Shown: positions 3,001 through 50,930 of the stretch, piece by piece
Layout: every line of letters begins with the position of its first letter
Numbering within the stretch: the first letter of the stretch is position 1
Virus record (IMG/VR): IMGVR_UViG_2721755498_000006
Location: 1-52,298 of that record
Source of the DNA: a virus
Lineage: Duplodnaviria; Heunggongvirae; Uroviricota; Caudoviricetes
DNA: 52,298 nt
Reading direction: 5' to 3' (one strand)
Notes under the pieces: generated by a model
Told to the model about the DNA's origin: nothing
Databases searched by the model: none
Seen by the model: the letters and a program-made list of their open reading frames with translations, nothing else
Made by a program: the position numbers and the translations under genes

Positions 3001-3243
3001 ATTCATTTCACTCGCTGCTGGAACCCAGCCAAAGAAGATCAGGCAACAGACCGGGCGTACCGAATTGGGCAAACTAAAGATGTGTATGTCTATTACCCGA
3101 CGGTGAAGGACACTGAAATCACCACATTTGAAGAAACACTGGATGACCTTCTGCAGCGTCGACGTGCATTGGCCAGAGATATGCTCTGCGCTACTCCCGA
3201 TTTGAGTGGTGCGGATTTTGAGGCCATTTTGAAGGGGGCTTAA
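1..3243 (+). CDS. SNF2/Swi2-family helicase-ATPase with ~580-aa N-terminal domain of unknown function; ORF begins at the first base of the window
   Basis: 1080-aa ORF; motifs LLADDMGLGKT (motif I), VCDEAQKIKN (DEAQ box) and QATDRAYRIGQ (motif VI) in the C-terminal half; no motif recognised in the N-terminal half; not RapA-like at the N-terminus. Confidence 0.85.
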   Translation: MLKRLLSKLTGNRQQIEHHLKNQYQVEENGLSFPLSLVDDSQLWALASWLEQLAEEDYLISLTDRWLLSWDALYRLLEDEEHASSLPLIGVPDVLPLRASLSSRGALSDSDFRVWIAEWATLPARKPIRFSRTGAILTHENQQYLLSRENWALLQATEQLSAQKNQTPGETTNQLGWAAIRKCAKQAAAKFDDYLEKTHVVKPTSLSLRLRKATVADTAVIEIEPHFEDQPANWLGSFDKNSQVHDSYRIPGENGELSHVIIPPEVKEVLNSIHSIPGRRVAGSEALSFVRNPYTFLGEDAASVIAPEEHEQALFDARIFFHHFRLIPQLNAENKIAEVTLVLEPVSPVPQPEITFGFSAPRELDKFIQQLGISVAAQMPAGSWQGYELELSQFTEQQWHDCQALLTRWQQEIEGKEFSDVLDIAKYGDRVIGIGEFEKISSPWLTKAQSENWLPDDIDFSAFSVETLSGWQPENLHHFDELQERITQAEAVGETHITAPWNDSQLPLDAAKTFSKNWEKQQSTANESQGNVADKTARAVLKIEQNIEETAYIKQRRNSLLNARHAEPEIPLSLKEHIRLKDHQREGVAWLQQLFLRSPEETAGCLLADDMGLGKTLQILSFLVWFIEKFPQEPPSLIVAPVSLLDNWERELDNFFYTAGIPVLKLYGETIKAVKYPKQAIPAHLQSQGIKNLLKPGWQGEAKIILTTYETLRDQEFSLARQPWSIMVCDEAQKIKNPAALITHAANAVQARFKVACTGTPVENTLVDLWSLFDFAQPGLLGALNEFGKHYVRPIENEDGRDTERLESLRALIEPQTLRRTKEEVARDLPQKIEVESCKQLTLSGVQKQLYLSSVANWQQQQALSEGMQQAGTGMLGLLHRLKLICAHPAVVNPEPRFRDNSPKLNWLLKILAELKHTTKDKVIIFTELRDLQRELQHAIHQKFGFRPVIINGDTSTKSQSQNSRQRLIDDFQAQPGFGVIILSTVAVGFGVNVQKANHVIHFTRCWNPAKEDQATDRAYRIGQTKDVYVYYPTVKDTEITTFEETLDDLLQRRRALARDMLCATPDLSGADFEAILKGA

Positions 3244-3764: not shown

Positions 3765-4478
3765 CTACAGGAACGGTTTCAATAACATCGGATCAATGAT
3801 CCCCTCTGGAAAATCGTAAAGATGCTGACGCGCTGTCGTCTCCTTCAGTCCCGCTGCTTTAGCAAAATCGCTGACGGAGTAGCCTTCAGGCCACCAGCTC
3901 TGATAGTAAATATCAAAATACTGCCCCCACTCTGCGCTCATCGGGCGTCGTGATAGCTGTCGGGCAGCAGATTTCTGAGTCAGTTGATATTTCACAATAT
4001 ATTCACCAACGCTAAGACCATTCTCGACTTTTTCGCGCTGAAACTGGCGACGATGGTAAACCCAGAACAGCGCCCTAAGCGATGCGCCACCAGCTTTATG
4101 CAGCGCATTCCAGGCTCTGCGGTGCGGTATCCTGTAGCGTTGCGCGTATTCGGTTTGTGTAATGCCATGCAGAATCGCTTCACGACGATAATTTTGCTTG
4201 TGCCAGGCCCAGTCAATCTTCCAGCGGTCGCATCGCTCGCTGTAGTCCTGAGCTCTTTTCTGGCGGGCAACAGGCAACTTCAGAAAGTTTTCAAAGAGTG
4301 TATCCAGCGAGCACGCAACCGGATGGATATGCTGCGTTTGCAGACGTATCTCATTGGGCGTAAGTGGGCGATATTCGAGCCCCGTTAGACGTTCCAGCCG
4401 CCATTCATGATAGTTTTTTCGACGACGTCTATTCCCGGCATACTTCAAACGATACAGTGCCTGTTCAGCGTATGACAT
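3765..4478 (-). CDS. hypothetical protein; C-terminal ~55 aa paralogous to the C-terminus of the upstream 360-aa protein
   Basis: 237-aa ORF; 14-nt overlap with upstream gene (translational coupling); shared C-terminal block (W..YFD.YY..WP.G.SV...A...L...TAR..L.D.P). Confidence 0.5.
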   Translation of the reverse strand: MSYAEQALYRLKYAGNRRRRKNYHEWRLERLTGLEYRPLTPNEIRLQTQHIHPVACSLDTLFENFLKLPVARQKRAQDYSERCDRWKIDWAWHKQNYRREAILHGITQTEYAQRYRIPHRRAWNALHKAGGASLRALFWVYHRRQFQREKVENGLSVGEYIVKYQLTQKSAARQLSRRPMSAEWGQYFDIYYQSWWPEGYSVSDFAKAAGLKETTARQHLYDFPEGIIDPMLLKPFL

Positions 4479-5547
4479 ATTGAATCTCCTTTTGAAGCCA
4501 ACCCCTCAGGATGCCAGGTGAGATAACTGCTGGTGGATAATCGCAGAGATAACGCCGGGCTGTTGAAGGATTTAAATCGTGCCAATTACAGTACTGAGCG
4601 ACGCTGACTCCGCAGGGCCAGTAATTGTCGTAATAGCGATCGAAATGCCGTAGCCAGTGAGGAGATAGTTGAGGTTTTTCAGCTGCTTTTCCGCGCTGAT
4701 ACAGCTTCAGTAAACGCTGAATGCTGCGAATCTGGCTATTTGTTTCATAATCCAGAGAGTCAATCTCTGCGGGTTCATTATCACCGAGAAATAACGGGTC
4801 AAGCTTACCTGGCAGCGGACAGTAACGTTCGGCAGGTGGCTGGCATTGCTTGAGTTTGGCTGGAGTCCTGGGTTTAGGCTTTTGTTGCTTCAGTACTTTG
4901 TAGTGCTTGCGTCCGTACAACGGAATATGTTTTGCGATTCCGGTCTTAGTGGCGTATTTAGCGAAATAGCTCAACCTTAACAGAAGCTCCCCCAGGGTCT
5001 GCGAATCGCGCTTATGGACCATGTAGTATCCGTTTTTGGGAAACCAAACTTTCCCGTTAGTTGCCGAACTCCAGGTCTTCTCCACCAGCCCATTCAATAC
5101 CTTTGGTGTACGTATGTGGTTCCCGTCCACCATGAGCACACAGTGATAGTGCTGCGCTGTCGCTTTGTCATGCTCACGAACCCAGAATATATCGAAAAAA
5201 GACTTTGGATAACGAGCACGTAATACCTGGGCTAATTGCTGGCAGAAGTCCGAAATAACCTGATTGTCATCTGTATAGCTCTTGAGATGTAAATCATAGC
5301 GAACAGCCAGAAAACGCGAAGTCCGCAGATAGGTTTGATTCACCGTATCAAAAAGGGCTTCCATGATCCTGGAATCATACTCTCCCTCTGCATGAAGTAT
5401 CGGCCAGAACACTTCGTCATACAGAAAGTATCCTTGAGCATTAATCCACTGAGCTGCTTGCGAGGCCGGTATATTATTAATTACCGATGGTTTCTCGAAC
5501 TGATGATCTCTATATTTTTCTAATTTATTCATTGAGTTACACAACAC
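4465..5547 (-). CDS. HUH-motif rolling-circle Rep-like protein (inovirus gpII / YfjJ-YagK-like as I recall the family)
   Basis: 360-aa ORF with HYHCVLMV (HUH) and downstream YFAKYATK (YxxK) motifs; directly downstream of alpA as in CP4-type islands; family name from memory, not searched. Confidence 0.5.
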   Translation of the reverse strand: MLCNSMNKLEKYRDHQFEKPSVINNIPASQAAQWINAQGYFLYDEVFWPILHAEGEYDSRIMEALFDTVNQTYLRTSRFLAVRYDLHLKSYTDDNQVISDFCQQLAQVLRARYPKSFFDIFWVREHDKATAQHYHCVLMVDGNHIRTPKVLNGLVEKTWSSATNGKVWFPKNGYYMVHKRDSQTLGELLLRLSYFAKYATKTGIAKHIPLYGRKHYKVLKQQKPKPRTPAKLKQCQPPAERYCPLPGKLDPLFLGDNEPAEIDSLDYETNSQIRSIQRLLKLYQRGKAAEKPQLSPHWLRHFDRYYDNYWPCGVSVAQYCNWHDLNPSTARRYLCDYPPAVISPGILRGWLQKEIQYVIR

Positions 5548-7077: not shown

Positions 7078-7126
7078 TGGTGCCGATAATAGGAGTCGAA
7101 CCTACGACCTTCGCATTACGAATGCG
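7078..7126 (-). repeat. att copy: 49-nt direct repeat of the thrW 3' end (plus ~17 nt of matching flank at 7061-7077)
   Basis: tggtgccgataataggagtcgaacctacgaccttcgcattacgaatgcg identical to 50855-50903. Confidence 0.9.
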
Positions 7127-7184: not shown

Positions 7185-8288
7185 TTGCCACAGTTCGTTA
7201 GGAATCAGACAGAAATGGCGACTATACGCAAACGTGGTAACTACCAATGGGAAGCTCAAATCCGTAAACGTGGTTTTCCCTCTCAAACCAAAACCTTTAA
7301 CACCAAAGTAGAAGCAGAAGCTTGGGCCAAAATGATCGAGTCAGAAATGGCGAGAGGAGTTTGGCTTAGCCGCAGCGAAGCGGAATCTACGACATTGTAT
7401 GAAGCCCTAACGCGATATGAAAAAGAGATTGTTCCCGACAAAAAAGGGGCAGTGCAAGACCGATCATTGGTGCGGATACTAAAAGCCACTCAGCTGGCGA
7501 AAAACTATATGGCCAGCATCAGGAGTGCCGATGTCGCCAAGCTGAGAGATGAATGGTTGAAAATCTATGCTCCTGCAACCGTTTTAAGGCGTTTGGCCTT
7601 ACTTTCTCATGTATTCAATGTTTCGCGGAAAGAATGGGGCATGGAGAGCCTGCTGAACCCCGTAGAGGCCATTCGCAAACCCCAACCCAAGAACTCCAGG
7701 ACCAGACGCCTGGAAGCGCTGCCTGTAGTTTCTGAGAAAACCGGTGTTACGTCAGGAAAGCAAATAGCCAACGAGATCGAACATATCATCGCCGCAACAC
7801 ATTCATTAGTATTGCCAGCAATCATTCTTCTGGCGTTAGAGACAGCCATGCGCCGTAGCGAAATCGCAGAGCTTCGATGGCGCTTTATCGATCTTGATCG
7901 GCGAGTTGCACATCTGCCGGATACTAAGAATGGTAATGCCCGCGATGTCCCTTTATCAACGAAAGCCATTACGATACTGTCCAGTCTCAAGGAACATTCT
8001 AAGCCAGCTGCTGATAAGGTTTTTGATATGCGTGCAGACGCGATTACCCGAGCTTTTGACCGAGCTGTAAAACGAGCCAGAGAACGATACGAGAAAACAA
8101 ACTCATTATGTGATGAATCTTTCCTTAAAGATTTAAGATTTCATGACCTTCGACATGAAGCAACTTCTCGACTTGCTGAAATTTTCCCTATGCATGAACT
8201 AACCAAAATTACAGGACATAAAGATCCAAGAATGCTAATGCGGTATTATCATCCAAAAGCTGAAGATTTGGCGTTAAAGTTGAAATAA
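7185..8288 (+). CDS. int: tyrosine recombinase / integrase of the middle integrative element
   Basis: R..HxxR..Y catalytic signature (ETAMRRSE, HDLRHEATS, MRYYH); starts ~60 nt from att copy; likely true start at MATIRKRG (~7215); TGCCACAAT-A-TTGCCACA arm-type repeat just upstream. Confidence 0.85.
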   Translation: MPQFVRNQTEMATIRKRGNYQWEAQIRKRGFPSQTKTFNTKVEAEAWAKMIESEMARGVWLSRSEAESTTLYEALTRYEKEIVPDKKGAVQDRSLVRILKATQLAKNYMASIRSADVAKLRDEWLKIYAPATVLRRLALLSHVFNVSRKEWGMESLLNPVEAIRKPQPKNSRTRRLEALPVVSEKTGVTSGKQIANEIEHIIAATHSLVLPAIILLALETAMRRSEIAELRWRFIDLDRRVAHLPDTKNGNARDVPLSTKAITILSSLKEHSKPAADKVFDMRADAITRAFDRAVKRARERYEKTNSLCDESFLKDLRFHDLRHEATSRLAEIFPMHELTKITGHKDPRMLMRYYHPKAEDLALKLK

Positions 8289-9809: not shown

Positions 9810-10760
9810 TTACAACCAGTTCTTCCGCTTAAAGTACAGATACGGTGCCAGGCCCGCGAGGATCATAAAGATAATCGCGGCAGGGTAGCCGAAGCTCCAC
9901 TTCAGTTCTGGCATAAACTCAAAGTTCATGCCATAGCTGGAAGCAACGAGCGTCGGCGGCAGGAATACCACGGATACCACCGAGAAGATTTTGATGATGC
10001 GGTTCTGCTCGATGTTGATAAAACCCATTGCCGCCTGCATCAGGAAGTTCACCTTCTGGAACAGGGATTCGTTATGCGGCAGCAGGGATTCGATATCTCG
10101 CAGGATTTCACGCGCCTGCTCCAGTTGCCCACCCGGTAAACGCGCTTTACGCACCAGGAAGTTGAGCGCGCGCTGGGTATCCATCAGACACAGGCGAACT
10201 TTCCAGCCGATATCTTCCAGTTCCGCCAGAGTGGAGAGCGCCTCGTCGTACTCATCGCCCTGATGCCCTTCCATAATCACCCGGCTCAACTGCTCCAGGT
10301 CGCTATAGATATTTTCAATTTCATCTGCCAACTGTTCGATTTTGGTTTCGAACAGATCCAGCAGCAACTCGTAGGCGTTACCGTCTACCATCGACTGGCT
10401 ACGGGCACGCATACGATACAGACGAAAAGCGGGCAGTTCACGCTCACGCAGAGTAAACAGACGACCATCACGGATGGTAAATGCCACAGTGGAGTTACCG
10501 GCGTGATCTTCCGCATCTTCAAAGAAGAAGAAGGAGTGAATATGCAGGCCGTCGTCGTCTTCAAAGAAACGTGCCGATGCTTCGATGTCTTCCAGTTCCG
10601 GGCGGGTTGCCAGGCTCTGGCCAAGTTCAGATTGTAAGCGCAGTCGCTCGTCGTCGTCCGGTTCGACAAGATCAATCCATACTGCATTTACAAGGGGTTG
10701 TGACTCTTCGACTTCCAGCCGGGTCAGTCGGTTATTTTCCAGTTGAAATGCGCTCAGCAT
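9810..10760 (-). CDS. corA: magnesium/cobalt transporter CorA
   Basis: [34 protein letters not shown] ... [11 protein letters not shown] ... matches E. coli CorA as I recall it; GMN motif present. Confidence 0.95.
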
Positions 10761-11129
10761 GACCGGGACTCCCAATGCTTAAAATATCGGACAGTTCGGT
10801 GGGCACACAGAAACAAATTGGGTTTCAGACCATTAAACAGCCTGACTCAGCGCGACGGGAAAAATTGAGGTCGCTGACAACCGCTAAGGCTATCAGCAAA
10901 AAGGGATAGCCTTAGGAGTTGATCCTGGATGACAGGATAGTGAGCCAGTATCTACTGGGTGTGTCCAAGGCGAATGTCCTCTTAGAGTGATCGTGCGCGC
11001 ATGTTACGCCAGCAAAATTTTGCCGTCAACACGCAACAGAACACCACAGAACAATAGTTGAACTTCGCGCTTTTTGGTACTCGTCAAGGTCGCTAACAGG
11101 ATAAAAAAATCCCACATCCAGGACCTATA

Positions 11130-11471: not shown

Positions 11472-11747
11472 GTGGCTTCTGTTTCTATCAGCTGTCCCTC
11501 CTGTTCAGCTACTGACGGGGTGGTGCGTAACGGCAAAAGCACCGCCGGACATCAGCGCTATCTCTGCTCTCACTGCCGTAAAACATGGCAACTGCAGTTC
11601 ACTTACACCGCTTCTCAACCCGGTACGCACCAGAAAATCATTGATATGGCCATGAATGGCGTTGGATGCCGGGCAACAGCCCGCATTATGGGCGTTGGCC
11701 TCAACACGATTTTACGTCACTTAAAAAACTCAGGCCGCAGTCGGTAA
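11472..11747 (+). CDS. insA: IS1 InsA
   Basis: identical translation to 9403..9678. Confidence 0.95.
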
Positions 11748-12169
11748 CCTCGCGCATACAGCCGGGCAGTGACGTCATCGTCTGCGCGGAAATGGACGAA
11801 CAGTGGGGATACGTCGGGGCTAAATCGCGCCAGCGCTGGCTGTTTTACGCGTATGACAGGCTCCGGAAGACGGTTGTTGCGCACGTATTCGGTGAACGCA
11901 CTATGGCGACGCTGGGGCGTCTTATGAGCCTGCTGTCACCCTTTGACGTGGTGATATGGATGACGGATGGCTGGCCGCTGTATGAATCCCGCCTGAAGGG
12001 AAAGCTGCACGTAATCAGCAAGCGATATACGCAGCGAATTGAGCGGCATAACCTGAATCTGAGGCAGCACCTGGCACGGCTGGGACGGAAGTCGCTGTCG
12101 TTCTCAAAATCGGTGGAGCTGCATGACAAAGTCATCGGGCATTATCTGAACATAAAACACTATCAATAA
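11666..12169 (+). CDS. insB: IS1 InsB
   Basis: identical translation to 8981..9484. Confidence 0.95.
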
Positions 12170-12302: not shown

Positions 12303-12348
12303 TGGTGCCGATAATAGGAGTCGAACCTACGACCTTCGCATTACGAAT
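12303..12348 (-). repeat. att copy: 46-nt direct repeat of the thrW 3' end
   Basis: tggtgccgataataggagtcgaacctacgaccttcgcattacgaat identical to 50855-50900; preceded at ~12200-12222 by TGCCACAATTTTGCCACA arm-type repeat. Confidence 0.9.
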
Positions 12349-12964: not shown

Positions 12965-14752
12965 ATGGAACTGAAATATAGACCCGAAATTGATGGGTTG
13001 AGAACATTAGCTGTTTTACCTGTTATCTTTTTTCATGCAGGCGTTCAATGGATTCCTGGAGGTTTTCTTGGAGTAGATGTTTTTTTTGTTATTAGTGGTT
13101 TTTTGATTACCAGCATTTTGCTAAAAGAATGCAGCAATGGAACATTTACATTCTCTGGATTTTATGAGAGAAGGGTTCGCAGAATTGCACCAGCATTAAT
13201 TTTAATGACATCAGTAACATTCATTATATCATTATTTGTGATGGTCCCATATGACCTAAAAAATCTTGGTCAATCAGTAGTTGCAACTATTTTTTCAGCA
13301 AACAATATATTGTTGTACCTAACATCAGGATACTGGTCTACAGCATCTGAATTTAAACCATTATATCACACATGGAGTCTGGCTGTAGAAGAACAGTATT
13401 ATCTTGTGGCACCTATAATAATATATATTATTTATTCAATTAATCATAATAAATTAATAAAAAATAGTTTTATATTCATGCTGTTAGTATCAATTGCCAG
13501 TTTTTTATTTGCAGCAATTGAGACAACACATAATAGAGAGTTTTCATTCCTCATGCTACCCTCTAGAGCCTGGGAGATCGCACTCGGCGGGATTGCTGCT
13601 ATTGCTCATTCGAAAATAAAAAGAAAAAGCAATGCATTATCATTCATTGGTTTTTTGTTAATAATATTTAGTTATTTTCTTGTTAGAGGAAAAATATCAC
13701 ACCCAGGACTCGAAACATTGATGCCAGTGATTGGCACATGTTTATTTTTGATGCATGCCAACTCACATAAAGGCGTAGGAAAGATAATGTCAATAAAACC
13801 AATGGTATTATGTGGTATGATAAGTTACTCATTATACCTTTGGCATCAGCCAGTTTTTGCATTTATAAGACTAAACTCTCAGTTCGAGCCATCAACAATA
13901 TATTTTATTGTTTCTATACCTTTTATTTTTATTATATCTTTTGCATCATATTTCTTTGTTGAGAAACCATTTAGAAACAAGAAAAAAACTTCTACAAAAA
14001 AGATTGTATCATACGCAATAGCATCGTCGTTAGTGTTATCAATATCTGGTTGGTTGATGCACAAGACATATGGATTGCAGAATATCAGGCCAGAGCTTGC
14101 CTATGGCGGCAATCCTCAGGAGTATGTGGACAGCCCTAAACGATTAAAGAATATTGACTTTTCAGATAATGGAAAGAAAATATTAATCATGGGTAATTCA
14201 TATGCGCGAGATATCATTAATGTAATATCTACTAAATTAAACCTTGATGATCTTAATATTGTTTATTTTGAAGGAAATTGCTACGAATCAATAAATAACT
14301 CTCACAAATTAGATTATTACTTGAAAGACGCAAACATTATTATTTACTCTGACAACTGGGGTGGGGAGGAGTATAATAACAGCGTAGAGAAATTAAAATA
14401 CTGCTACGATAACGTAAAGTTAGCATCCAACGCTAAGGTATACATGGTAGGGACAAAAAACTTTGGGTATAACAATAACTTTGCCACTAACTTATCTAAA
14501 AATGATCGAATCTTAGCGAAAACATACCCACTATCAAAGTATTTACAGTTCAATAATGATGCAAAATTAGAGTTAGGAAATGATTATATAGATGTATTTA
14601 GTCTTATTCAAGATGAGAATGGGATGGTTAATGTTTTTGATGGTGATGGTAAGTTTTTATCATATGATACCAATCACTTAACTAAATATGGGGCAAGTTA
14701 CTTAGGTGATATTTTATCAAAAAAAACAGATTTGTTTCATAGTTTAAAATAA
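12965..14752 (+). CDS. O-antigen acyltransferase (acyltransferase-3 membrane domain plus C-terminal SGNH-like domain; OafA/Oac type), lysogenic conversion gene
   Basis: 595-aa AT-rich ORF; N-terminus ...LRTLAVLPVIFFHAGVQ...GVDVFFVISGFLIT..., multiple TM segments, long C-terminal soluble domain; located between tailspike and att as P22 gtr / Sf6 oac. Confidence 0.8.
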   Translation: MELKYRPEIDGLRTLAVLPVIFFHAGVQWIPGGFLGVDVFFVISGFLITSILLKECSNGTFTFSGFYERRVRRIAPALILMTSVTFIISLFVMVPYDLKNLGQSVVATIFSANNILLYLTSGYWSTASEFKPLYHTWSLAVEEQYYLVAPIIIYIIYSINHNKLIKNSFIFMLLVSIASFLFAAIETTHNREFSFLMLPSRAWEIALGGIAAIAHSKIKRKSNALSFIGFLLIIFSYFLVRGKISHPGLETLMPVIGTCLFLMHANSHKGVGKIMSIKPMVLCGMISYSLYLWHQPVFAFIRLNSQFEPSTIYFIVSIPFIFIISFASYFFVEKPFRNKKKTSTKKIVSYAIASSLVLSISGWLMHKTYGLQNIRPELAYGGNPQEYVDSPKRLKNIDFSDNGKKILIMGNSYARDIINVISTKLNLDDLNIVYFEGNCYESINNSHKLDYYLKDANIIIYSDNWGGEEYNNSVEKLKYCYDNVKLASNAKVYMVGTKNFGYNNNFATNLSKNDRILAKTYPLSKYLQFNNDAKLELGNDYIDVFSLIQDENGMVNVFDGDGKFLSYDTNHLTKYGASYLGDILSKKTDLFHSLK

Positions 14753-14800: not shown

Positions 14801-16693
14801 CTAAGCCACCTCACCCCTCCATGAGCAATCAACAATACCTCCGCGCACCATCTTCCACCGCATGTTGTACGATGCCGAAGGAACAAGCTTTATACCAACA
14901 CCAAGATTGGGAACTGTTTCAACTGATTTAATCCAAGCGTTATTTGAATTACTGTACGTGAATGTTAATTGCTCTGTATTAGTGTAGAAGTCATCAGTGC
15001 ATGTTGTTATTGCCGCTGAAGTATTTGCGTTATCCGCCCCGTTATAATAATACAGCTCAAAGGCTATGTAGCCGTGGTTCTTCATCCTCGTAGCAAACAC
15101 GCCGCCCGTGTTTCTTGCCGCGATACCACCCTGTTTGAATGTGGTGTTACGCTCACCTTGCACGCTTCCCGCATTGATAGTCTGGAACGGAGTAACATCA
15201 GCAGAACTGTACTTGTCATTGTACAACTGCATAGCCCCGCCCATTTTATCTGTGTAAAACACATAAGATTCAAGGTGGTAAGGGGATTGGTTTTTAATGG
15301 TATTATACGATTTTATCTCGTTATAGAAATCGGTGTCATTTGTAATATCCTTAAAGGAACTTATGATTAGGTTACTTTCCCACGCAAAGGCTACATAGCT
15401 TCCATCACCCATACCAAAAAACTCCTTAGCAAAATTTATTTGCTTTGTTTTATCAGAGAAGCTTGTTGGTTCAGTGAACATTCCGAGACAAGGCACTATC
15501 TTTGAATTTGGGGATTTATATTGCATTTCAGCCCAGCACAGTACAGCGGTCCTCTTGTTTTCGGCAGAATCCCTAGAAGAGTATGCATATGCATCCACAA
15601 AAATCAAATCGTACCCAACACCGTTATACCCAGAAGGGACTGTTTGGTTATCAAACGAAAAAATCCCGTTGTCAGCTATACATAAAGCTTTACTGGTAAA
15701 TGCCTTGAATGCATTTATACGAGTGGCTTGAGCAGTTGCAGATACCGAATGGTTTTGCGGTTCATCAAACAAGTAATAGCCGATAACGCAATCTCTGCCG
15801 TCAAGGTCTGTAGCCGGGGTGTTTGTCTGCCCGTACACAGTACCACCAAGTATAAGTTTCAATCCAACAGCTTCCGCGGCGTTACAAGCTTTTTCCATAT
15901 TCCCGCCGTTTGTCCACGCTTGACCGTAGTGGATTAGTGTATTAAACCCCGCGGTTTTTAGTTGTAACATGTCACAAATATCAAACACGCGATGAACGTA
16001 TACAGCCTTCATTAGTGAATGGTCTACAGGTATTTCACTATCAAGTTCACATGGAACGTTTGGTAGTCTTGTGTATGTAATCGTTGCTTTTCCGGTAATC
16101 CTTGCACCTTGTGGCCAGTCAAAACTAGATAATGTCGTGGCACCGCTGATATGCGCAACCCCTGTTTTACCTATGGCTGCAAGAACATAAGGCTTAGCGT
16201 CCTCTCCACTACCATATATATATCCATACAAAGAAATATCAGACCAATTATAGCTAGAATTATACTTTATTGAGTCTATTTCTTCTTGTACTGTTTTACC
16301 AGTTGCGGTCCCTACAAGAGATGCCCCGTTATCTGAAGAGATAGTCTGCCTAAACTGATCCGGGTCATACTTAAGCACATTAGGAAAATAGAACTGCTGC
16401 GCCCCATACGCATCATAAACAGCCATAGAATGGCCTTGCACAGTTACGAACTTGGCAATCTGTCCGTTATATACCGGATATCCAGCGGCGTTAATGATGA
16501 TTGGTTGCGGAACAGGAACGTGAGAACCGTCTTCATTCTCTACATAAATCTGAATCTGGTTTTCAGGATTTACCGGGTCAGTGTCAATTTTTCCGATATA
16601 AATTTTGCCATTGGCTACGGCTTTAAAAGAACGCGCCATAGTGAAGAGTTGCGAAGGCATGCTTACCACAATATTTGCGGTGATATCTGACAT
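14801..16693 (-). CDS. tailspike protein: P22 gp9-like N-terminal head-binding domain fused to a different receptor-binding/enzymatic domain
   Basis: [59 protein letters not shown]... matches P22 tailspike N-terminus; remainder unlike P22 endorhamnosidase as I recall it; start set at internal Met with GGAG SD. Confidence 0.9.
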
Positions 16694-16814
16694 TTCATTG
16701 CTCCAGACGAATGATATGATGCAACCATGATGTGATTGCATACCGAAATGGTACTATTGAGTATTTATCCAGTAGGTTACGATGCCATTCCACCCAACTG
16801 GTGAGGCATCAAGG

Positions 16815-31603: not shown

Positions 31604-32041
31604 TCATCGAAGGCATTGCGTCCTGATGTATTCCTGCAGGTAGTTAACCTGCGCGGTTATCCTGTCGATTCCACTTCGGAGACGGTAATAATTGAGTTCA
31701 GCATCTGCTGTAAGTCTTGGGCTTTCTCCATCGCCCATGCCGCTGGCTCCGGTCGTTGACTTTGCACAGGTGGCGGCGACCTGCAGGCGCTTACGCCCAG
31801 CAGAAACATCAGCGCGGAGACTTTCGATAGTCGCGTTAGCATCAGCAAGCTCCTTTGTGTATCTGGCATCGAGTTCAGCTACATCACGTTGACGCTTCTG
31901 CATATCAGCGATGATGGATGTGGCTTTATCGCGCTGCTCTTTGTAGGTCATGGCGTTATCACGGTAATGATTAACAGCCCATGACAGGCAGACGATGATG
32001 CAGATAACCAGAGCGGAGATAATCGCGGTTACTCTGCTCAT
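31604..32041 (-). CDS. Rz: i-spanin Rz
   Basis: N-terminal TM, lambda Rz-like; overlaps R end. Confidence 0.9.
31657..31842 (-). CDS. Rz1: o-spanin Rz1 lipoprotein embedded in Rz (+1 frame)
   Basis: lipobox-like LGVSAC followed by Pro-rich [13 protein letters not shown]. Confidence 0.75.
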
Positions 32042-32514
32042 ACCTCAATCTCTCTGACCGTTCCGCCTGCCTCTTTGAATTTTGCAATCAGGTTGTCAGC
32101 CTTATGCTCGAACTGACCATAACCAGCGCCCGGCAGTGAAGCCCATATATTGCTGCAACGGTCGATAGCCTGACGGATATCACCGCGATCAATCATCGGC
32201 AAAGCGCCACGCTCCTTAATCTGCTGCAATGCAACAGCATCCTGGCTTTTAGGAGAGAAGTCTTTCAGGCCAAGCTGCTTACGATAGGCATCCCACCAAC
32301 GGGAAAGAAGCTGGTAACGTCCGGCTGCTGTTGATTTGAGTTTTGGGTTTAGCGTGACAAGTTTGCGAGGGTGATCGGAGTAATCAGTGAATAGCTCTCC
32401 TCCTACAATGACGTCATAACCATGATTTCTGGTTTTCTGACGTCCGTTATCAGTTCCCTCTGACCACGCCAGCATATCGAGGAACGCCTTACGTTGATTA
32501 TTGATTTCCACCAT
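32038..32514 (-). CDS. R: endolysin R (lambda-type lytic transglycosylase)
   Basis: [49 protein letters not shown]... as lambda R. Confidence 0.95.
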
Positions 32515-32821
32515 CTTCTACTCCGGCTTTTTTAGCAGCGAAGCGTTTGATAAGCGAACCAATCGAGTCAGTACCGATGTAGCCGATGAACACGCTCGTT
32601 ATATAAGCGAGGTTGCTACTTAGTCCGGCGAAGTCGAGAAGGTCACGAATGAACCAGGCGATAATGGCGCACATCGTTGCGTCGATTACTGTTTTTGTAA
32701 ACGCACCGCCATTATATCTGCCGCGAAGGTACGCCATTGCAAACGCAAGGATTGCCCCGATGCCTTGTTCCTTTGCCGCGAGAATGGCGGCTAACAGGTC
32801 ATGTTTTTCTGGCATCTTCAT
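32498..32821 (-). CDS. S: holin S (dual-start MKM motif)
   Basis: [43 protein letters not shown]... as lambda S. Confidence 0.95.
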
Positions 32822-33063
32822 GTCTTACCCCCAATAAGGGGATTTGCTCTATTTAATTAGGAATAAGGTCGATTACTGATAGAACAAATCCAGGCTACTG
32901 TGTTTAGTAATCAGATTTGTTCGTGACCGATATGCACGGGCAAAACGGCAGGAGGTTGTTAGCGCGACCTCCTGCCACCAGCTTTCACGAAGATCATGTG
33001 TAGAAGGCCGCAGCGTAACTATCACTGATGAATTCAGGATAGCCAGTGGCTACGGCTCAGTTA

Positions 33064-33139
33064 TGGTGCTGGTTAACGGACTTGAACCGCTACCCATTCG
33101 CTTACAAGGCGACTGCTCTACCATTGGAGCTAAACCAGC
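33064..33139 (-). tRNA. tRNA-Thr (anticodon UGU) in the Q-S interval
   Basis: hand-folded cloverleaf: 7-bp acceptor GCUGGUU/AACCAGC, D-stem GCUC/GAGC, T-loop UUCAAGU, anticodon loop CUUGUAA, 3' CCA encoded. Confidence 0.75.
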
Positions 33140-33144
33140 ATATT

Positions 33145-33219
33145 TGGCGGGACAGCGTGGACTCGAACCACGATAAGAAGGTTAACAGCCTTCCGTAATG
33201 ACCTTTATACGACTGACCC
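33145..33219 (-). tRNA. tRNA-Asn (anticodon GUU)-like, slightly imperfect acceptor and D stems
   Basis: anticodon stem GAAGG/CCUUC, loop CUGUUAA, T-arm CGUGG-UUCGAGU-CCACG, CCA encoded; one U-U mismatch in acceptor stem. Confidence 0.55.
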
Positions 33220-33282
33220 AAATAAAAAAAGCCACCGTTGCAACTTAAGAGTCACTAACGGCAGCTTACCCTCTAATTATGG

Positions 33283-33801
33283 CTAAATGGCTAATTGCAT
33301 GTCAAGGTTTTTAACAGCAACATGCTTAACTTTCTCAACACGTTTACGCATTTTGAAAGCATTTTGCATTGGTTGGTACAAAACAAATAATGACGCTTTC
33401 AGGATGTCGTCAATTTCGTTTCTACAGGTTGCCAGTGAAGGTTTTCTCCATCCCTCGCCACCACGTCCACACATCTTGCGTGGCTTTGCAGTCGCGTGAT
33501 AGTAGGATGCAATTGCTCGCTTAGATGAACCATGAGCGTAGTAGCTGAGGAGGATGCCAAAGGCTTTTTTGTCAATGTACATGACGGAATCGACGACCTG
33601 AGAAATCAACATTCCATCATCATCATTGCACATTGGCCTTGTCATAACTCTTCCCGGCTCTACGCTCTCCATGAACTTCGCTATTACGCTGCTCATGCGC
33701 TTTTCCAGACGACCTGAATAAACCCATGCGCCCCACAGTTCAAGCCAGCCATTCAGCCACTCGTGCTGCTCTTTGGTGAGGTTTAGTTCTCTTATGCCCA
33801 C
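33283..33801 (-). CDS. late antiterminator Q-like protein
   Basis: position between nin phosphatase and lysis cassette; WLELWGAW-type N-terminal motif as I recall for a Q family. Confidence 0.6.
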
Positions 33802-34647: not shown

Positions 34648-35255
34648 GCGGCCTCACTTCTGCTATTTCGCAGGTCTTTGAGTTTCTGTTGGTACTCTGC
34701 CTTGATCGCCTTGCACTCTTCGATAGTCCAGCGATGGCGGTTATGGTTTGATTCGATTTCGTCTACTGCTTCCTGCCCGATGCGGCTAATCAGTTCGACG
34801 CGATACGGAACGAGATTTCCGCTTTTGTGCTGGTTGCACACCACGCATTGCTTGTGAATATTGCGTTCATCAAATCGGAGTTGAGGCGCCGCAGCAGTTG
34901 TCCGGTAATGCCCGGCATCCCACTGAGCAGACGTGAGCGTTCCGCACGAGATACATGGTAAGTCGCGGTCTCTTTCTCTGATGAAGGCGTTTACGGCTTG
35001 TTGTGCTTGTTTAATCCAGTAACTGCGGGGTTTTAAGGCGAGTTTTCGAATCTTAAGTTTATCTTTCTGTTTCTGCTCCTCTCGTCGTCGTTTCTTCTCT
35101 GCTGCTTTTTCCGCTTTTTCGCGTTCTTTGCCTCGTCGTTCGAGTGCTATCTTTGTTCCACACTCTGGAGAGCACCACCACTGATTAGCGAATGCAGGGT
35201 GAAACCATTCCCGACATTCATCGTTTTTACATCGTCTTCGCGCTGGTTTAGCCAT
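34644..35255 (-). CDS. ninG: NinG / Rap recombination endonuclease
   Basis: 203 aa; Cys-rich zinc-binding pattern; lambda NinG-like. Confidence 0.85.
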
Positions 35256-44492: not shown

Positions 44493-44624
44493 ATGATTTA
44501 CGCAATCGCGGGAGGCGCTCGCATGGGTGCCTTCCAACTAAATGAATCTTTACTTGAACGAATCACCCGTAAATTACGTGACGGATGGAAAAGAGTTGAG
44601 GTCTTATTATGCGCAATGAAATAG
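44493..44624 (+). CDS. cIII: CIII-like protein
   Basis: hand-translated 43 aa; ESLLERITRKLRDGWKR matches lambda CIII core. Confidence 0.75.
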   Translation: MIYAIAGGARMGAFQLNESLLERITRKLRDGWKRVEVLLCAMK

Positions 44625-44761
44625 CCATCAATCACCAGATGCTTCGTGCTGCACAAAACAAAGCAGTAATAGCCAGATTTATTGGTGATTCAAAAATGTG
44701 GCTTGAAGCAAATAAAGCGATGAAATCAGCTATCAACCTTCCGTGGTATCGCAGGAAATGA
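44609..44761 (+). CDS. Kil-like small protein
   Basis: hand-translated 50 aa; ARFIGDSKMW resembles lambda Kil ATFIGDEKMF; follows cIII as in lambda. Confidence 0.5.
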   Translation: MRNEIAINHQMLRAAQNKAVIARFIGDSKMWLEANKAMKSAINLPWYRRK

Positions 44762-44916
44762 GTTTTACAGATAACTGGTCAGACGAAGAATTCATTCGTC
44801 AGATGAAAGAATTAATCGGTAACGAAGGAGATATTCATGTCACTTGCAACCACAGTGAAGGAGAGCAAGTTACAGAGACGCATGTACACGCAGAAAGCTC
44901 TCTGGTATCGCCATAA
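44758..44916 (+). CDS. small ORF (52 aa) at the arf position
   Basis: ATGA start/stop overlap with upstream ORF. Confidence 0.35.
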   Translation: MSFTDNWSDEEFIRQMKELIGNEGDIHVTCNHSEGEQVTETHVHAESSLVSP

Positions 44917-45017
44917 TGGCGACCGCGAAGGAATGCGGGTATGCCTTAATTTGTCCCGAGTCGAAGTATTAAATCAGCGTTATTTCCTTGGGCCATGTCC
45001 ATTCTGAGAACAATCAT

Positions 45018-45623
45018 ATGAGCAAAGAATTTTACGCAAGACTGGCAGCCATTCAGGAGAATCTGAACGCGCCAAAAAATCAGTACAACTCATTCGGTAA
45101 ATATAAATACAGAAGCTGCGAAGATATTCTTGAAGGCGTTAAGCCGTTACTGAATGGCCTGTTTTTATCAATCAGCGATGAAGTTGTGTTGATTGGTGAT
45201 CGGTATTACGTGAAAGCCACGGCAACTATTACCGATGGCGAAAACAGTCATACGGCAACCGCTCTCGCAAGAGAGGAAGAAAGCAAGAAAGGAATGGATT
45301 CTGCACAAGTTACTGGAGCTACAAGCTCTTATGCGCGCAAGTATTGCCTTAATGGTTTGTTCGGCATTGATGATGCGAAAGATGCAGATACAGACGAGCA
45401 TAAACATCAGCAGAACGCAGCAGCAAAGCAATCAAAGCCATCACCTACACCTGAACAGGTTCTAAAAGCATTCACTGACGCAGCATTGCAGAAAAACACC
45501 GTGGAAGAGCTTAAACAGGCGTTCGCCAAAGCGTGGAAGATGCTCGAAGGCACACCGGAGCAGCACAAAGCGCAGGACGTTTACAACATCAGACGAGACG
45601 AATTAGAAGGGGCAACTGCTTAA
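45018..45623 (+). CDS. erf: Erf single-strand annealing recombinase
   Basis: MSKEFYARLAAIQENLNAPKNQYNSFGKYKYRSCEDILEGVKPLLNGLFLSISDE... as P22 Erf. Confidence 0.9.
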   Translation: MSKEFYARLAAIQENLNAPKNQYNSFGKYKYRSCEDILEGVKPLLNGLFLSISDEVVLIGDRYYVKATATITDGENSHTATALAREEESKKGMDSAQVTGATSSYARKYCLNGLFGIDDAKDADTDEHKHQQNAAAKQSKPSPTPEQVLKAFTDAALQKNTVEELKQAFAKAWKMLEGTPEQHKAQDVYNIRRDELEGATA

Positions 45624-46006
45624 TGGCACATTCGATTACAGTAAGACTAAACAAGCCCGCAAGAGAGTTTCAGGCCGGGGAAAATATCGGATTCAACATC
45701 CGTGCTGGCGTTCAGTATTACGATCGCCAGACAAAAAAGAAAGAATGGACAAACTACAGCGCCGTTGTATTTGCCAAGCCGGGAGCGCAAGCGGATTACT
45801 ACCGTAGTGTTCTTGTTGAAGGTGGCATTGTGGAAATTACCGGAGAAAACATCAGGGTAGATGTTTATCAGGGGCAAAATGGTCAATCAATCACTCTTGA
45901 ATTACTGAATGCAAAGATTGGATTTGCAACTTCAGGAAACAGCCAACAGCAGCAAAGTAGCAATCATCAAAATCATCCTGAATACGACGATTCAATCCCC
46001 TTCTAG
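45623..46006 (+). CDS. SSB-like single-stranded DNA-binding protein
   Basis: OB-fold-like N-terminus, Gln-rich linker and acidic tail DDSIPF like SSB DDDIPF. Confidence 0.75.
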   Translation: MAHSITVRLNKPAREFQAGENIGFNIRAGVQYYDRQTKKKEWTNYSAVVFAKPGAQADYYRSVLVEGGIVEITGENIRVDVYQGQNGQSITLELLNAKIGFATSGNSQQQQSSNHQNHPEYDDSIPF

Positions 46007-46029
46007 ATTAGCAAAATAAGGATTCCATT

Positions 46030-46323
46030 ATGCCAGCGCCTCTGTATGGTGCGGATGACCCGCGCCGCTGTTCCGGCAATTCCGTATCGGAGGTGCTGGA
46101 TAAATTCAGAAAAAACTACGATCGGATAATGTCGCTACCGCAGGAAACGAAAGAGGAAAAGGAATTTCGCCATTGTATATGGCTTGCAGAGAAAGAAGAA
46201 CGCGAGCGAATTTACCAGACATCAATCCGACCATTCCGCAAAGCCACATATACCCACTTCCCTGAAATTGACCCGCGCCTGCGTAATTACCGCTCACGCT
46301 ATGGCGCTATCAGTAATGACTGA
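46030..46323 (+). CDS. abc2: Abc2-like anti-RecBCD protein
   Basis: 97 aa; recalled similarity to P22 Abc2 and position after erf. Confidence 0.6.
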
Positions 46324-46333
46324 GGAATTTACC

Positions 46334-46510
46334 ATGAGAGGACTTGCATACAATCCCGGCATTCTTCCGGCAGAAATGATTATTCGCCAGCGCGTAAAGC
46401 CAATGCCATCGAGAGAGGAATTGCTTAAGAGAAATAGTTTCGGTTCTGTTAACGACAACAGATATCTTGAAATGATTTTGAGGAGTAAGAAGGATTATGT
46501 CAAAAAATGA
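46334..46510 (+). CDS. small hypothetical ORF
   Basis: 58 aa. Confidence 0.3.
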
Positions 46511-47075
46511 CATTTCATATGAATACCTCATTAGCAACATTCACTACGATAAAGAAACTGGGGTTTTCAAGAAGATAATTAAATCAAATAATGGGGATAT
46601 AATTGGTTTCAAACCAACTGGCTGTACGCACTCGATGGGATACATAAGGATATATATTAATAAAAAATGGTATTTAGCGCACAGACTAGCTTGGTTATAT
46701 GTTACCGGGAAATGGCCAGTAAATGTAATTGATCACATCAACAGAAATAAAGCTGACAACAGGTTTATTAACCTACGAGATGTCTCCAGTAGGGAAAACA
46801 ATAGCAACACAAGTAGAAATAAAGGAACTGAAATAGGCACAGAAAGGTGTGCTTATGGATGGAGAGCATACATAGGTGTTAATGGAAAACTACATCACCT
46901 TGGCTCATATGCAACATGTGATGGTGCAAAATATGCGTATGCTCTAGCAAAATATCAAGTAGAAATATATGGTTACCTGCGCCCCACACCAATCGATTGC
47001 AGAAAATTAAATTACGGAAACAGGGGGAATCGTAATGGAAATCCTAAATCAAACCGTCGCAAGTTCCTTCAGTGA
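46497..47075 (+). CDS. HNH homing-type endonuclease
   Basis: HNH motif region [32 protein letters not shown]. Confidence 0.8.
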
Positions 47076-47883
47076 ATCAAAACAAATATCTGAATGCGAT
47101 GTGGCGGAGTGGGAAGAAATGAAACAAATGTCACTAATTGAGATGGATGGATTTCTGAAAGGTAAATGCATCCCATGTGATTTAAAGGTTAACGAAACAA
47201 ATGCTGAATATCTTGTCCGTAAGTTCGGTGAACTTGAATCAAAACTAGAAACGGCGTTGCGTGAGTGTCGTTCTGCTGGAATCACGATTGATAACCTTGA
47301 GGCCAAGTGCGCGGCGCTGGCTGACTTATTTGGCGATGTGAAAGAGATTTTTGGTTTTAAGTATCGCTATTTCATCACCTCAAAGGGGCTCATTTTCTCA
47401 TTGGCCTCTGGCGAACTAAAGCAATTAAACCCAACCATGCGCGGCAAGAACAGAAATCAGTATTTATTCGTTAGGCTGGAGTTTGAAGGAAAACTAAAAG
47501 GCGTGAACATCCACCGATTAGTTGCTGAAAACTTTCTCGGCCCTAAGCCTTCTGATGAGCACGTAATTAACCATATAGACGGGAATAAACAAAACAATGA
47601 TGTTTCAAACCTGGAGTGGACGACGGTAGCGGGCAACACTCAGCACGCATATAGAACAGGTCTGGCCGGGGGAAGAAAACACGGATCGTATAAAGGTCCA
47701 GTCTGCGCTGAGAACGAGGAAGGTTTTGGGTATGTGTTCTTTGACAGCAAACAGGCCATCGAGGCTGGATTTAACCCAAACTCAATCAGGGACGCTGTTG
47801 TTAAGCCATGGAAGAAAGTATTCGGATTCTATTTTAGTCGCATCAATACCGATGCCCAGCTTCGCAAAGGGGGCAACCAGTGA
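47035..47883 (+). CDS. HNH endonuclease (NUMOD4-like N-terminal region)
   Basis: HRLVAENFLGPKPSDEHVINHIDGNKQNNDVSNLEW. Confidence 0.8.
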   Translation: MEILNQTVASSFSESKQISECDVAEWEEMKQMSLIEMDGFLKGKCIPCDLKVNETNAEYLVRKFGELESKLETALRECRSAGITIDNLEAKCAALADLFGDVKEIFGFKYRYFITSKGLIFSLASGELKQLNPTMRGKNRNQYLFVRLEFEGKLKGVNIHRLVAENFLGPKPSDEHVINHIDGNKQNNDVSNLEWTTVAGNTQHAYRTGLAGGRKHGSYKGPVCAENEEGFGYVFFDSKQAIEAGFNPNSIRDAVVKPWKKVFGFYFSRINTDAQLRKGGNQ

Positions 47884-50854: not shown

Positions 50855-50930
50855 TGGTGCCGATAATAGGAGTCGAACCTACGACCTTCGCATTACGAAT
50901 GCGCTGCTCTACCAACTGAGCTATATCGGC
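50855..50930 (-). tRNA. thrW: tRNA-Thr (anticodon CGU), intact; attR-side att site
   Basis: GCCGATATAGCTCAGTTGGTAGAGCAGCGCATTCGTAATGCGAAGGTCGTAGGTTCGACTCCTATTATCGGCACCA on minus strand. Confidence 0.95.

Follow-up and report, generated by a model that had tools for sequence, protein, structure and literature searches.

The 52,298-nt stretch of viral DNA analysed here (the window) carries two bona fide phage tRNA genes, a tRNA-Asn (GUU) and a tRNA-Thr (UGU), which by their sequence are the already described Asn-Thr pair of the phage 21, Sf6 and HK446 late operons. We favor, with moderate confidence, the reading that both are functional phage tRNAs of this known cassette, that the tRNA-Thr is a nuclease-resistant stand-in for the host tRNA-Thr(UGU), ThrU, and that the tRNA-Asn acts likewise for its host counterpart while adding to codon supply. 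As an annotation the pair is nothing new, since it has stood in GenBank records from 1999–2003 onward and is called by the NCBI pipeline in hundreds of E. coli genomes. Work from 2025–2026 on an identical tRNA-Thr and the P2 Old nuclease, however, makes the cassette a marker of a phage-versus-prophage arms race, and one found in roughly 6% of complete E. coli genomes.

A sequence-only reading of the window had proposed two tRNA genes here, a Thr-UGU and an Asn-GUU-like gene folded by hand into canonical cloverleafs with encoded CCA, and had suggested running tRNA predictors on them. ARAGORN, applied to the whole window, called both genes on the minus strand within the identical limits (33064–33219; anticodons tgt and gtt) and found three tRNA genes in total, the third being the host gene thrW. 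Against the Rfam model RF00005, which has a gathering score of 29 bits, the tRNA-Thr reached 61.5 bits (E = 5.7e-11) and the tRNA-Asn 55.3 bits (E = 2.8e-09). Neither score is sub-threshold, both matches run the full length of the model (1–71), and both 3' ends are CCA. Because each gene matches the whole Rfam model, the two are not fragments of a single degraded tRNA, the outcome that the earlier reading had named as fatal to its proposal. Chance cloverleaves are likewise excluded by the E-values, the covariation and the conservation described below.

The finer structural points also held. One acceptor-stem mismatch and a weak D stem had been predicted for the tRNA-Asn, and the Rfam alignment places a non-standard U4.U69 pair in the acceptor stem and gives a D stem of three pairs plus U13.U22. 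The Thr gene had been listed before the Asn gene, which is correct for position along the window but reversed with respect to transcription; the order along the transcript is tRNA-Asn, a 5-nt gap, and tRNA-Thr. Synthetase identity rules for tRNA-Asn and tRNA-Thr are well established. Read from the sequence, the tRNA-Asn has the Asn identity elements G34, U35, U36 and G73, and the tRNA-Thr has the Thr elements G1-C72, C2-G71, G35 and U36. The anticodon arm of the tRNA-Asn is GAAGG[CUGUUAA]CCUUC and that of the tRNA-Thr is GUCGC[CUUGUAA]GCGAA, the latter with a G27.A43 mismatch.

We compared natural variants of the two genes in 80 viral contigs, which were fetched by the distinctive D arm of the tRNA-Asn and contained 17 distinct tRNA-Thr and 13 distinct tRNA-Asn sequences; these variants are closely related, and the invariance of the Asn D arm, the search bait, is uninformative. 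Compensatory double changes were found at acceptor pairs 3-70, 5-68 and 6-67 of the tRNA-Thr and at pairs 6-67, 7-66 and 28-42 of the tRNA-Asn. A control with slid partners gave 0–1 compensatory pairs, compared with three in each tRNA. Additionally, G27.A43 of the tRNA-Thr is kept in all 17 distinct variants, and U4.U69 of the tRNA-Asn in 12 of 13. This pattern of substitutions indicates that both genes are under selection as tRNAs.

Most of these contigs (66 of 80) have the plain Asn-Thr pair, and the rest have sets expanded with Phe, Arg(UCU) or Gly(UCC). ARAGORN called a Thr(UGU) gene adjoining Asn in 72 of the 80, and a further 4 have a chimeric Thr of the JLK-2012 type that the program does not call. 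In JLK-2012 itself, the annotated tRNA-Thr (687–762 of the compared fragment) has a 5' third of phage type and a remainder near-identical to host thrU; its anticodon stem is down to 3 bp (A27.C43, C28.U42), and it passes Rfam at 49 bits with no ARAGORN call. The phage L gene annotated as tRNA-Leu(UAA) (687–758 of the compared fragment) aligns to the cassette Thr gene, has an abnormal anticodon region, scores 42 bits with Rfam and also receives no ARAGORN call. It probably derives from the cassette tRNA-Thr by decay.

Table 1. Features of the tRNA cassette, its late-operon surroundings and the prophage loci discussed in the text (window coordinates).
Feature	Position	Strand	Description and basis
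tRNA-Thr (UGU)	33064..33139	-	76 nt, CCA encoded; ARAGORN and Rfam
tRNA-Asn (GUU)	33145..33219	-	75 nt, CCA encoded, discriminator G73; ARAGORN and Rfam
Q-type late antiterminator	33283..33801	-	172 aa, phage 21 / Sf6 gene 59 type; ORF, Q annotation in matching phage and E. coli records
Late promoter P_R'	33276..33305	-	TTGACA, 18-nt spacer, CATAAT; 11/12 matches, aligns with annotated Sf6 P_R'
Leader terminator t_R', in qut region	33224..33265	-	G+C-rich hairpin, then seven U's; Sf6 annotation
Leader containing the 10-bp hairpin	33063-32822	-	about 240 nt; fold
10-bp perfect hairpin between tRNAs and S	32947..32976	-	arms 32976-32967 / 32956-32947, then GUUUUG
Holin/antiholin S	32498..32821	-	107 aa, starts MKM, lambda-type dual start; ORF, phage annotations
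R	32038-32514	-	ORF
Rz	31604-32041	-	ORF
thrW, host tRNA-Thr (CGU)	50855..50930	-	regenerated intact at prophage end (attR); ARAGORN, Rfam 71.8 bits
gp33 homolog (HK446/HK75)	44743..44916	+	88% over 52 aa; tblastn
Abc2, anti-RecBCD, P22 type	46030..46323	+	early-left operon; Pfam PF11043, 212.7 bits; 98% identical to HK446 gp30

The two tRNA genes lie between Q and the holin gene, as the earlier reading had placed them, and its assignment of the pair to the late operon agrees with the signals directly upstream (Table 1). P_R' overlaps the 3' end of the Q gene. The t_R' hairpin folds at -24 kcal/mol (z = -4.2), a value equalled by none of 200 shuffled sequences, and ends 4 nt upstream of the tRNA-Asn; it is identical in Sf6, BTP1, 21, L and JLK-2012, with a U-run of 6 or 7. 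The hand-curated Sf6 record is 97.9% identical to the window over the 701 nt that begin in the 3' part of Q and reach the start of S; it annotates P_R', qut and t_R' upstream of tRNA-Asn and tRNA-Thr and describes them as "similar to phage 21". With the promoter and t_R' directly upstream, as annotated in Sf6, the tRNAs would be the first genes of the late transcript, and the first protein gene is S, 99% identical to HK446 gp55. The same upstream elements dispose of an early location of the tRNAs between Q and P_R'. Thus, position supports the assignment of both tRNAs to the Q-dependent late transcript. The authors of the phage L study describe it as not known whether the late mRNA is cut to free such tRNAs (PMC8022706).

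Given this arrangement, polymerase starting from P_R' and modified by Q would read through t_R' and transcribe the two tRNAs ahead of the lysis and virion genes. Both molecules would then be freed by host RNase P and by trimming of their 3' ends, and no CCA addition would be needed because CCA is encoded. Once released, the tRNAs would supply decoding of ACA and AAC/AAU during phage protein synthesis. The tRNA-Thr would replace host ThrU destroyed by P2 Old, which is the best-supported of the proposed roles and draws on plasmid-expressed phage 21 and HK446 molecules, while ordinary codon supply would be a contributing benefit of the tRNA-Asn.

Comparison with known phages leaves little room for novelty in the cassette itself. 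Its 171 nt match HK446 and Bas106 at every position (171/171, 100%); identity is 99.4% with phage 21, Sf6 and SfI and 98–99% with many Salmonella P22-like phages. Individually, the tRNA-Thr is identical to tRNA-Thr21 of phage 21 (76/76) and to the HK446 Thr tRNA, and the tRNA-Asn is identical to those of phages 21, L and JLK-2012 (75/75). The records of phage 21, Sf6 and HK446 (AJ237660, AF547987 and NC_019714) have the same order (Asn, 5 nt, Thr), the same place after Q/P_R'/t_R' and before the holin, and the same downstream leader, with no difference of substance from the window; further carriers are BTP1, SPN9CC, SfI and Bas106. In Sf6 the promoter, qut, t_R' and both tRNAs have been annotated since 2003. 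When a genome was included if at least 80% of the cassette was present, 352 of 5,426 complete E. coli genomes had it, almost always annotated as tRNA-Thr and tRNA-Asn.

The flanks, in contrast, differ by carrier. The upstream Q/promoter module is lambda-type in HK446, 21-type in phages 21 and JLK-2012 and Sf6-type in the window, and the downstream holin is lambda S in the window and another type in the Salmonella phages. In HK446, with its lambda-type Q and P_R', homology to the window begins only 10 nt before the tRNA-Asn. This start point and the varying Q indicate that the tRNAs and the downstream leader move as a unit, independent of Q type. Positions 35097–35252 of HK446 (NC_019714) hold the identical Asn-Thr cassette, which is not annotated in the RefSeq record although ARAGORN finds both genes there. 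HK446 has been described as having a "single" tRNA, Thr (bioRxiv 10.64898/2026.07.10.737580), and its tRNA-Asn gene seems to have been overlooked in that 2026 preprint.

The combination of Asn(GUU) and Thr(UGU) recurs in small tRNA sets of the unrelated coliphages P1, N4 and Mulock. The sets of P1 and N4 have these anticodons in the same order as the window, adjacent and separated by a 2-nt spacer in P1 (1425–1578 of the compared fragment) and as Asn, Ser, Thr, Pro in N4 (1337–1586 of the compared fragment). Their Thr tRNAs are 80–86% identical to the window Thr and share G39 with it, whereas their Asn tRNAs are of another lineage and their context is not a Q-dependent late operon. More broadly, the Thr(UGU) tRNAs of the 21 type, N4, P1, T5 and Mulock all have G39, compared with U39 in host thrU. 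We take the ileZ-argN-argO cassette of Stx phages (933W, H-19B type) to occupy the matching map place, from Q/P_R' to the first late genes, and presume its transcription to be Q-dependent, as for the window cassette; the sequence-only reading had already drawn this parallel. The Stx set (Ile, Arg, Arg) decodes the rare codons AUA and AGA/AGG, which fits codon supplementation. The window cassette differs in that its anticodons are GUU and UGU, with none for AUA or AGA/AGG.

The case for a defensive role is most direct for the tRNA-Thr. Old of prophage P2, the effector of classic P2-lambda interference, is a Toprim tRNase that kills by cutting ThrU, the sole UGU tRNA of E. coli, at paired CNG motifs of the anticodon stem, and phage Thr(UGU) tRNAs rescue cells from it (Govande et al. 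2025, PMC12445682). In that study the phage 21 tRNA-Thr, tested by name, protected cells against P2 Old and was resistant to cleavage in vitro, owing to C28U/G42A together with a shorter anticodon stem (PMC12445682). The window tRNA-Thr is this same tested molecule. Like the rescue tRNAs tRNA-Thr21 and Thr6 (PMC12445682), it combines the anticodon of the host target, UGU as in ThrU, with changes in the CNG motif and an anticodon stem of reduced length: U28-A42 gives UCG/CGA in place of host CUG/CAG, and G27.A43 interrupts what is a 5-bp stem in the host. Additionally, Old-sensitive phages regain plating when HK446 Thr(UGU) is expressed from a plasmid (bioRxiv 10.64898/2026.07.10.737580).

A second tRNase, PARIS AriB, also cuts ThrU, with Lys(UUU) as its main target. 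The AriB site is U36-A-A-U39-C40-A41, cut between C40 and A41, and a change of U39 in tRNA-Lys abolishes cleavage (PMC12409363). In the window tRNA-Thr this site is substituted, reading UAAGCG (G39, G41) instead of host UAAUCA, and both window tRNAs are without U39, like the T5 Lys, Thr and Asn variants directed against AriB (PMC12409363, PMC11464382). Unlike the T5 set, however, the cassette has no Lys(UUU), which ARAGORN did not find among the three tRNAs of the window, so it could not neutralize PARIS alone; the window tRNA-Asn also differs in its full 5-bp anticodon stem. Both window tRNAs further depart from the known rescue tRNAs in that they belong to a temperate phage and follow a late terminator instead of forming part of an early tRNA array.

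The prophage itself is exposed to Old, since its early-left operon has Abc2 and a homolog of gp33 (Table 1), the HK446/HK75 protein reported to trigger P2 Old (bioRxiv 10.64898/2026.07.10.737580). The recombination locus of which they are part (44609–46323, plus strand) is near-identical to that of HK446 (kil 100%, gp33 homolog 88%, Erf 99%, gp31 99%, Abc2 98%). HK446 escapes Old mainly via a protein inhibitor, Oad2, and the authors of that study consider that its tRNA may serve another purpose; moreover, viral Thr(UGU) alone gave no rescue of lambda, or of recB cells, from Old (bioRxiv 10.64898/2026.07.10.737580). Only the first 68 residues of Oad2 occur in the window prophage, fused to an HNH nuclease. 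In this 282-aa ORF (47035–47883, plus strand), residues 29–96 align at 93% identity with the N-terminal 68 aa of HK446 gp27 (Oad2) and the remainder is an HNH endonuclease, with a second HNH ORF upstream (46497–47075). Timing is awkward for counter-defence as well: Old is triggered by early genes, but the tRNAs stand downstream of t_R' and would be made with the late operon.

The useful lead is the adjoining tRNA-Asn, which differs at the AriB determinant from its host counterpart, a tRNA that both Old and PARIS attack as a secondary target. For AriB, host tRNA-Asn(GUU) is a secondary target but one that matters biologically, and rescue from PARIS is complete only when the Asn variant of T5 accompanies its Lys and Thr variants. 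Asn(GUU) was also among three comparison tRNAs assayed with Old, where ThrU was cut fastest and Asn more slowly. The window tRNA-Asn has C39 and U41 where the host has U39 and C41, giving an AriB site of UAACCU compared with UAAUCC. Its AAG/CUU replaces host CGG/CCG, so that the CNG pair is lost, but the anticodon stem keeps its full 5 bp; of the two alterations that mark the Thr rescue tRNAs, it has one.

From these differences we propose, tentatively, that the tRNA-Asn could be a second nuclease-resistant stand-in, for host tRNA-Asn(GUU). We are equally hesitant about the wider idea that the cassette might be a matched two-part kit against Toprim tRNases, with Thr and Asn jointly needed for full escape of temperate lambdoid and P22-like phages. 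A possible corollary is that t_R' and the downstream hairpin bracket the tRNAs, and that leaky transcription would yield tRNAs without lysis proteins. Several natural sequences speak against counter-defence by Asn: a Mulock-type Asn variant restores the paired CNG motif, P1 Asn keeps the AriB site UAAUCA (P1 Thr also keeps the CNG pair), and the Gly(UCC) of JLK-2012 is host-like. Our literature search found no direct tests of the cassette tRNA-Asn, or of P22-like phages against PARIS or Old. The role of the tRNA-Asn bears on whether small temperate-phage tRNA sets are tuned to the target lists of defence nucleases. The data do not support a rule by which all tRNAs gained by such cassettes would bear anti-Old changes, as the extra Gly(UCC) of JLK-2012 is a near-match to host glyT (A38G) and retains the CNG pair, and the Mulock-type Asn regains it.

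We consider it rather unlikely that the tRNAs only raise the supply of decoders for late-gene codons and have no defence role. The sequence-only reading had suggested comparing ACA and AAC use in late genes with that of the host, and we made this comparison against 44 K-12 genes. ACA is about 2-fold enriched in the late genes (17.7 vs 8.5 per 1000 codons, p = 9e-8), where it makes up 30% of Thr codons as against 16% in the K-12 sample (p = 1e-7), and ThrU is a single-copy, low-abundance host tRNA. AAC is 1.5-fold enriched (31.5 vs 21.4 per 1000) and accounts for 22 of the 24 Asn codons in the coat gene; the phage L authors argue likewise from 24/25 (PMC8022706). However, the most over-used codons are others, namely AGG (7.6x in late genes, 10x phage-wide), AGA (4–7x), and CGA and AUA (2–3x), and the phage carries no tRNA for any of these four. 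AAC is in fact a preferred host codon (18/19 Asn codons in ompA) that is read by the ordinary host tRNA. Similarly, the coat gene avoids ACA (4/40 Thr codons), and ACA is equally enriched in the early-left genes (37%), which are translated ahead of the late operon.

Nor would supplementation explain why the anticodon stems differ from those of the host exactly at nuclease determinants, or why G27.A43 is conserved. Over-expressed host ThrU does not rescue cells from Old, whereas the phage tRNA does (PMC12445682; bioRxiv 10.64898/2026.07.10.737580). Thus, codon usage accounts in part for ACA and poorly for AAC, a favored host codon. Codon supply probably contributes in the case of ACA, but it accounts neither for Asn as the partner nor for the specific differences from host tRNAs. 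High ACA use would also make the phage more vulnerable to loss of ThrU.

Another explanation, which we regard as improbable, is that the tRNAs are mainly RNA-processing punctuation, providing RNase P/RNase E entry sites at which the leader is cut off the late mRNA, with decoding secondary. Processing of mRNA linked to tRNAs is known in other phages, such as T4, and would favor this explanation. The layout is also compatible with it, as the tRNAs abut t_R' (4 nt), are followed by the roughly 240-nt leader with its stable hairpin, and in unrelated cassettes a hairpin or terminator is retained just downstream. However, the anticodons, identity elements and encoded CCA are conserved, and processing alone would not need them. 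In vivo, the identical Thr tRNA reads ACA codons, and its rescue depends on the UGU anticodon (PMC12445682), and P22 and lambda do without tRNAs at the corresponding site (PMC8022706). Nuclease-resistant replacement of host tRNAs, with some codon supply, remains the reading that we favor.

The downstream hairpin had been noted by the earlier reading as a 10-bp perfect inverted repeat following the tRNAs and preceding S, and folding confirmed it (z = -2.2; 6 of 200 shuffles as good). A simple terminator scan did not call it. The stem is perfect in the window, but in Sf6 and BTP1 one of its positions is changed without compensation, which leaves the hairpin unsupported as a conserved covarying structure. 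Canonical terminators stand at the corresponding place in the unrelated leaders of L, JLK-2012 and Mulock. The hairpin is possibly a weak second terminator bracketing the tRNAs, or else a processing or stability element.

The host element of the cassette is a P22-like prophage integrated at thrW, and phage IME10 matches it at 96% identity over the aligned 64% of a 24.9-kb query, virion genes included. Sf6 itself presumably integrates at argW. We give almost no credence to the idea, taken from the HK446 preprint (bioRxiv 10.64898/2026.07.10.737580), that the cassette makes up for damage done to a host tRNA gene when the prophage integrates: the integration target is indeed a tRNA-Thr gene and the prophage does carry a tRNA-Thr, but thrW is intact at attR and its anticodon, CGU, differs from the phage UGU, which rules the idea out, and in addition the cassette occurs in phages that integrate elsewhere (argW for the Sf6 relative Kapi1, according to the abstracts of the Kapi1 preprint), a tRNA behind a late terminator would be expected to be poorly expressed in a lysogen, and the tRNA-Asn would be left unexplained.

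The thrW/P22 att core, ATGCGAAGGTCGTAGGTTCGACT, is present in three direct copies (7094–7116, 12319–12341 and 50871–50893), from which the prophage spans about 12.3–50.9 kb. None of the complete E. coli genomes covers the window, and its genes were therefore called directly from the sequence. These cores delimit three tandem elements at thrW: a left island, a small element at 7.1–12.3 kb and the P22-like prophage. The small element contains an integrase gene (7185–8288), a CorA-like gene (9810–10775) and an IS1 transposase gene (11666–12169). A Type I Zorya anti-phage system adjoins the prophage, occupying window positions 1–3243 and the left flank to about 7 kb; ZorD, an SNF2 helicase, is at 1–3243, and E. 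coli genomes with 99.8% identity have zorA/C/D among their named genes. The left flank also has a YagK/YfjJ-domain gene (4465–5547). Lastly, an acyltransferase gene of low GC content (12965–14752, plus strand; 37–39% GC) with AT3 and SGNH domains adjoins the tailspike gene (14801–16741), and it resembles the O-antigen acetylase gene of Sf6 (oac) and is probably serotype-converting.
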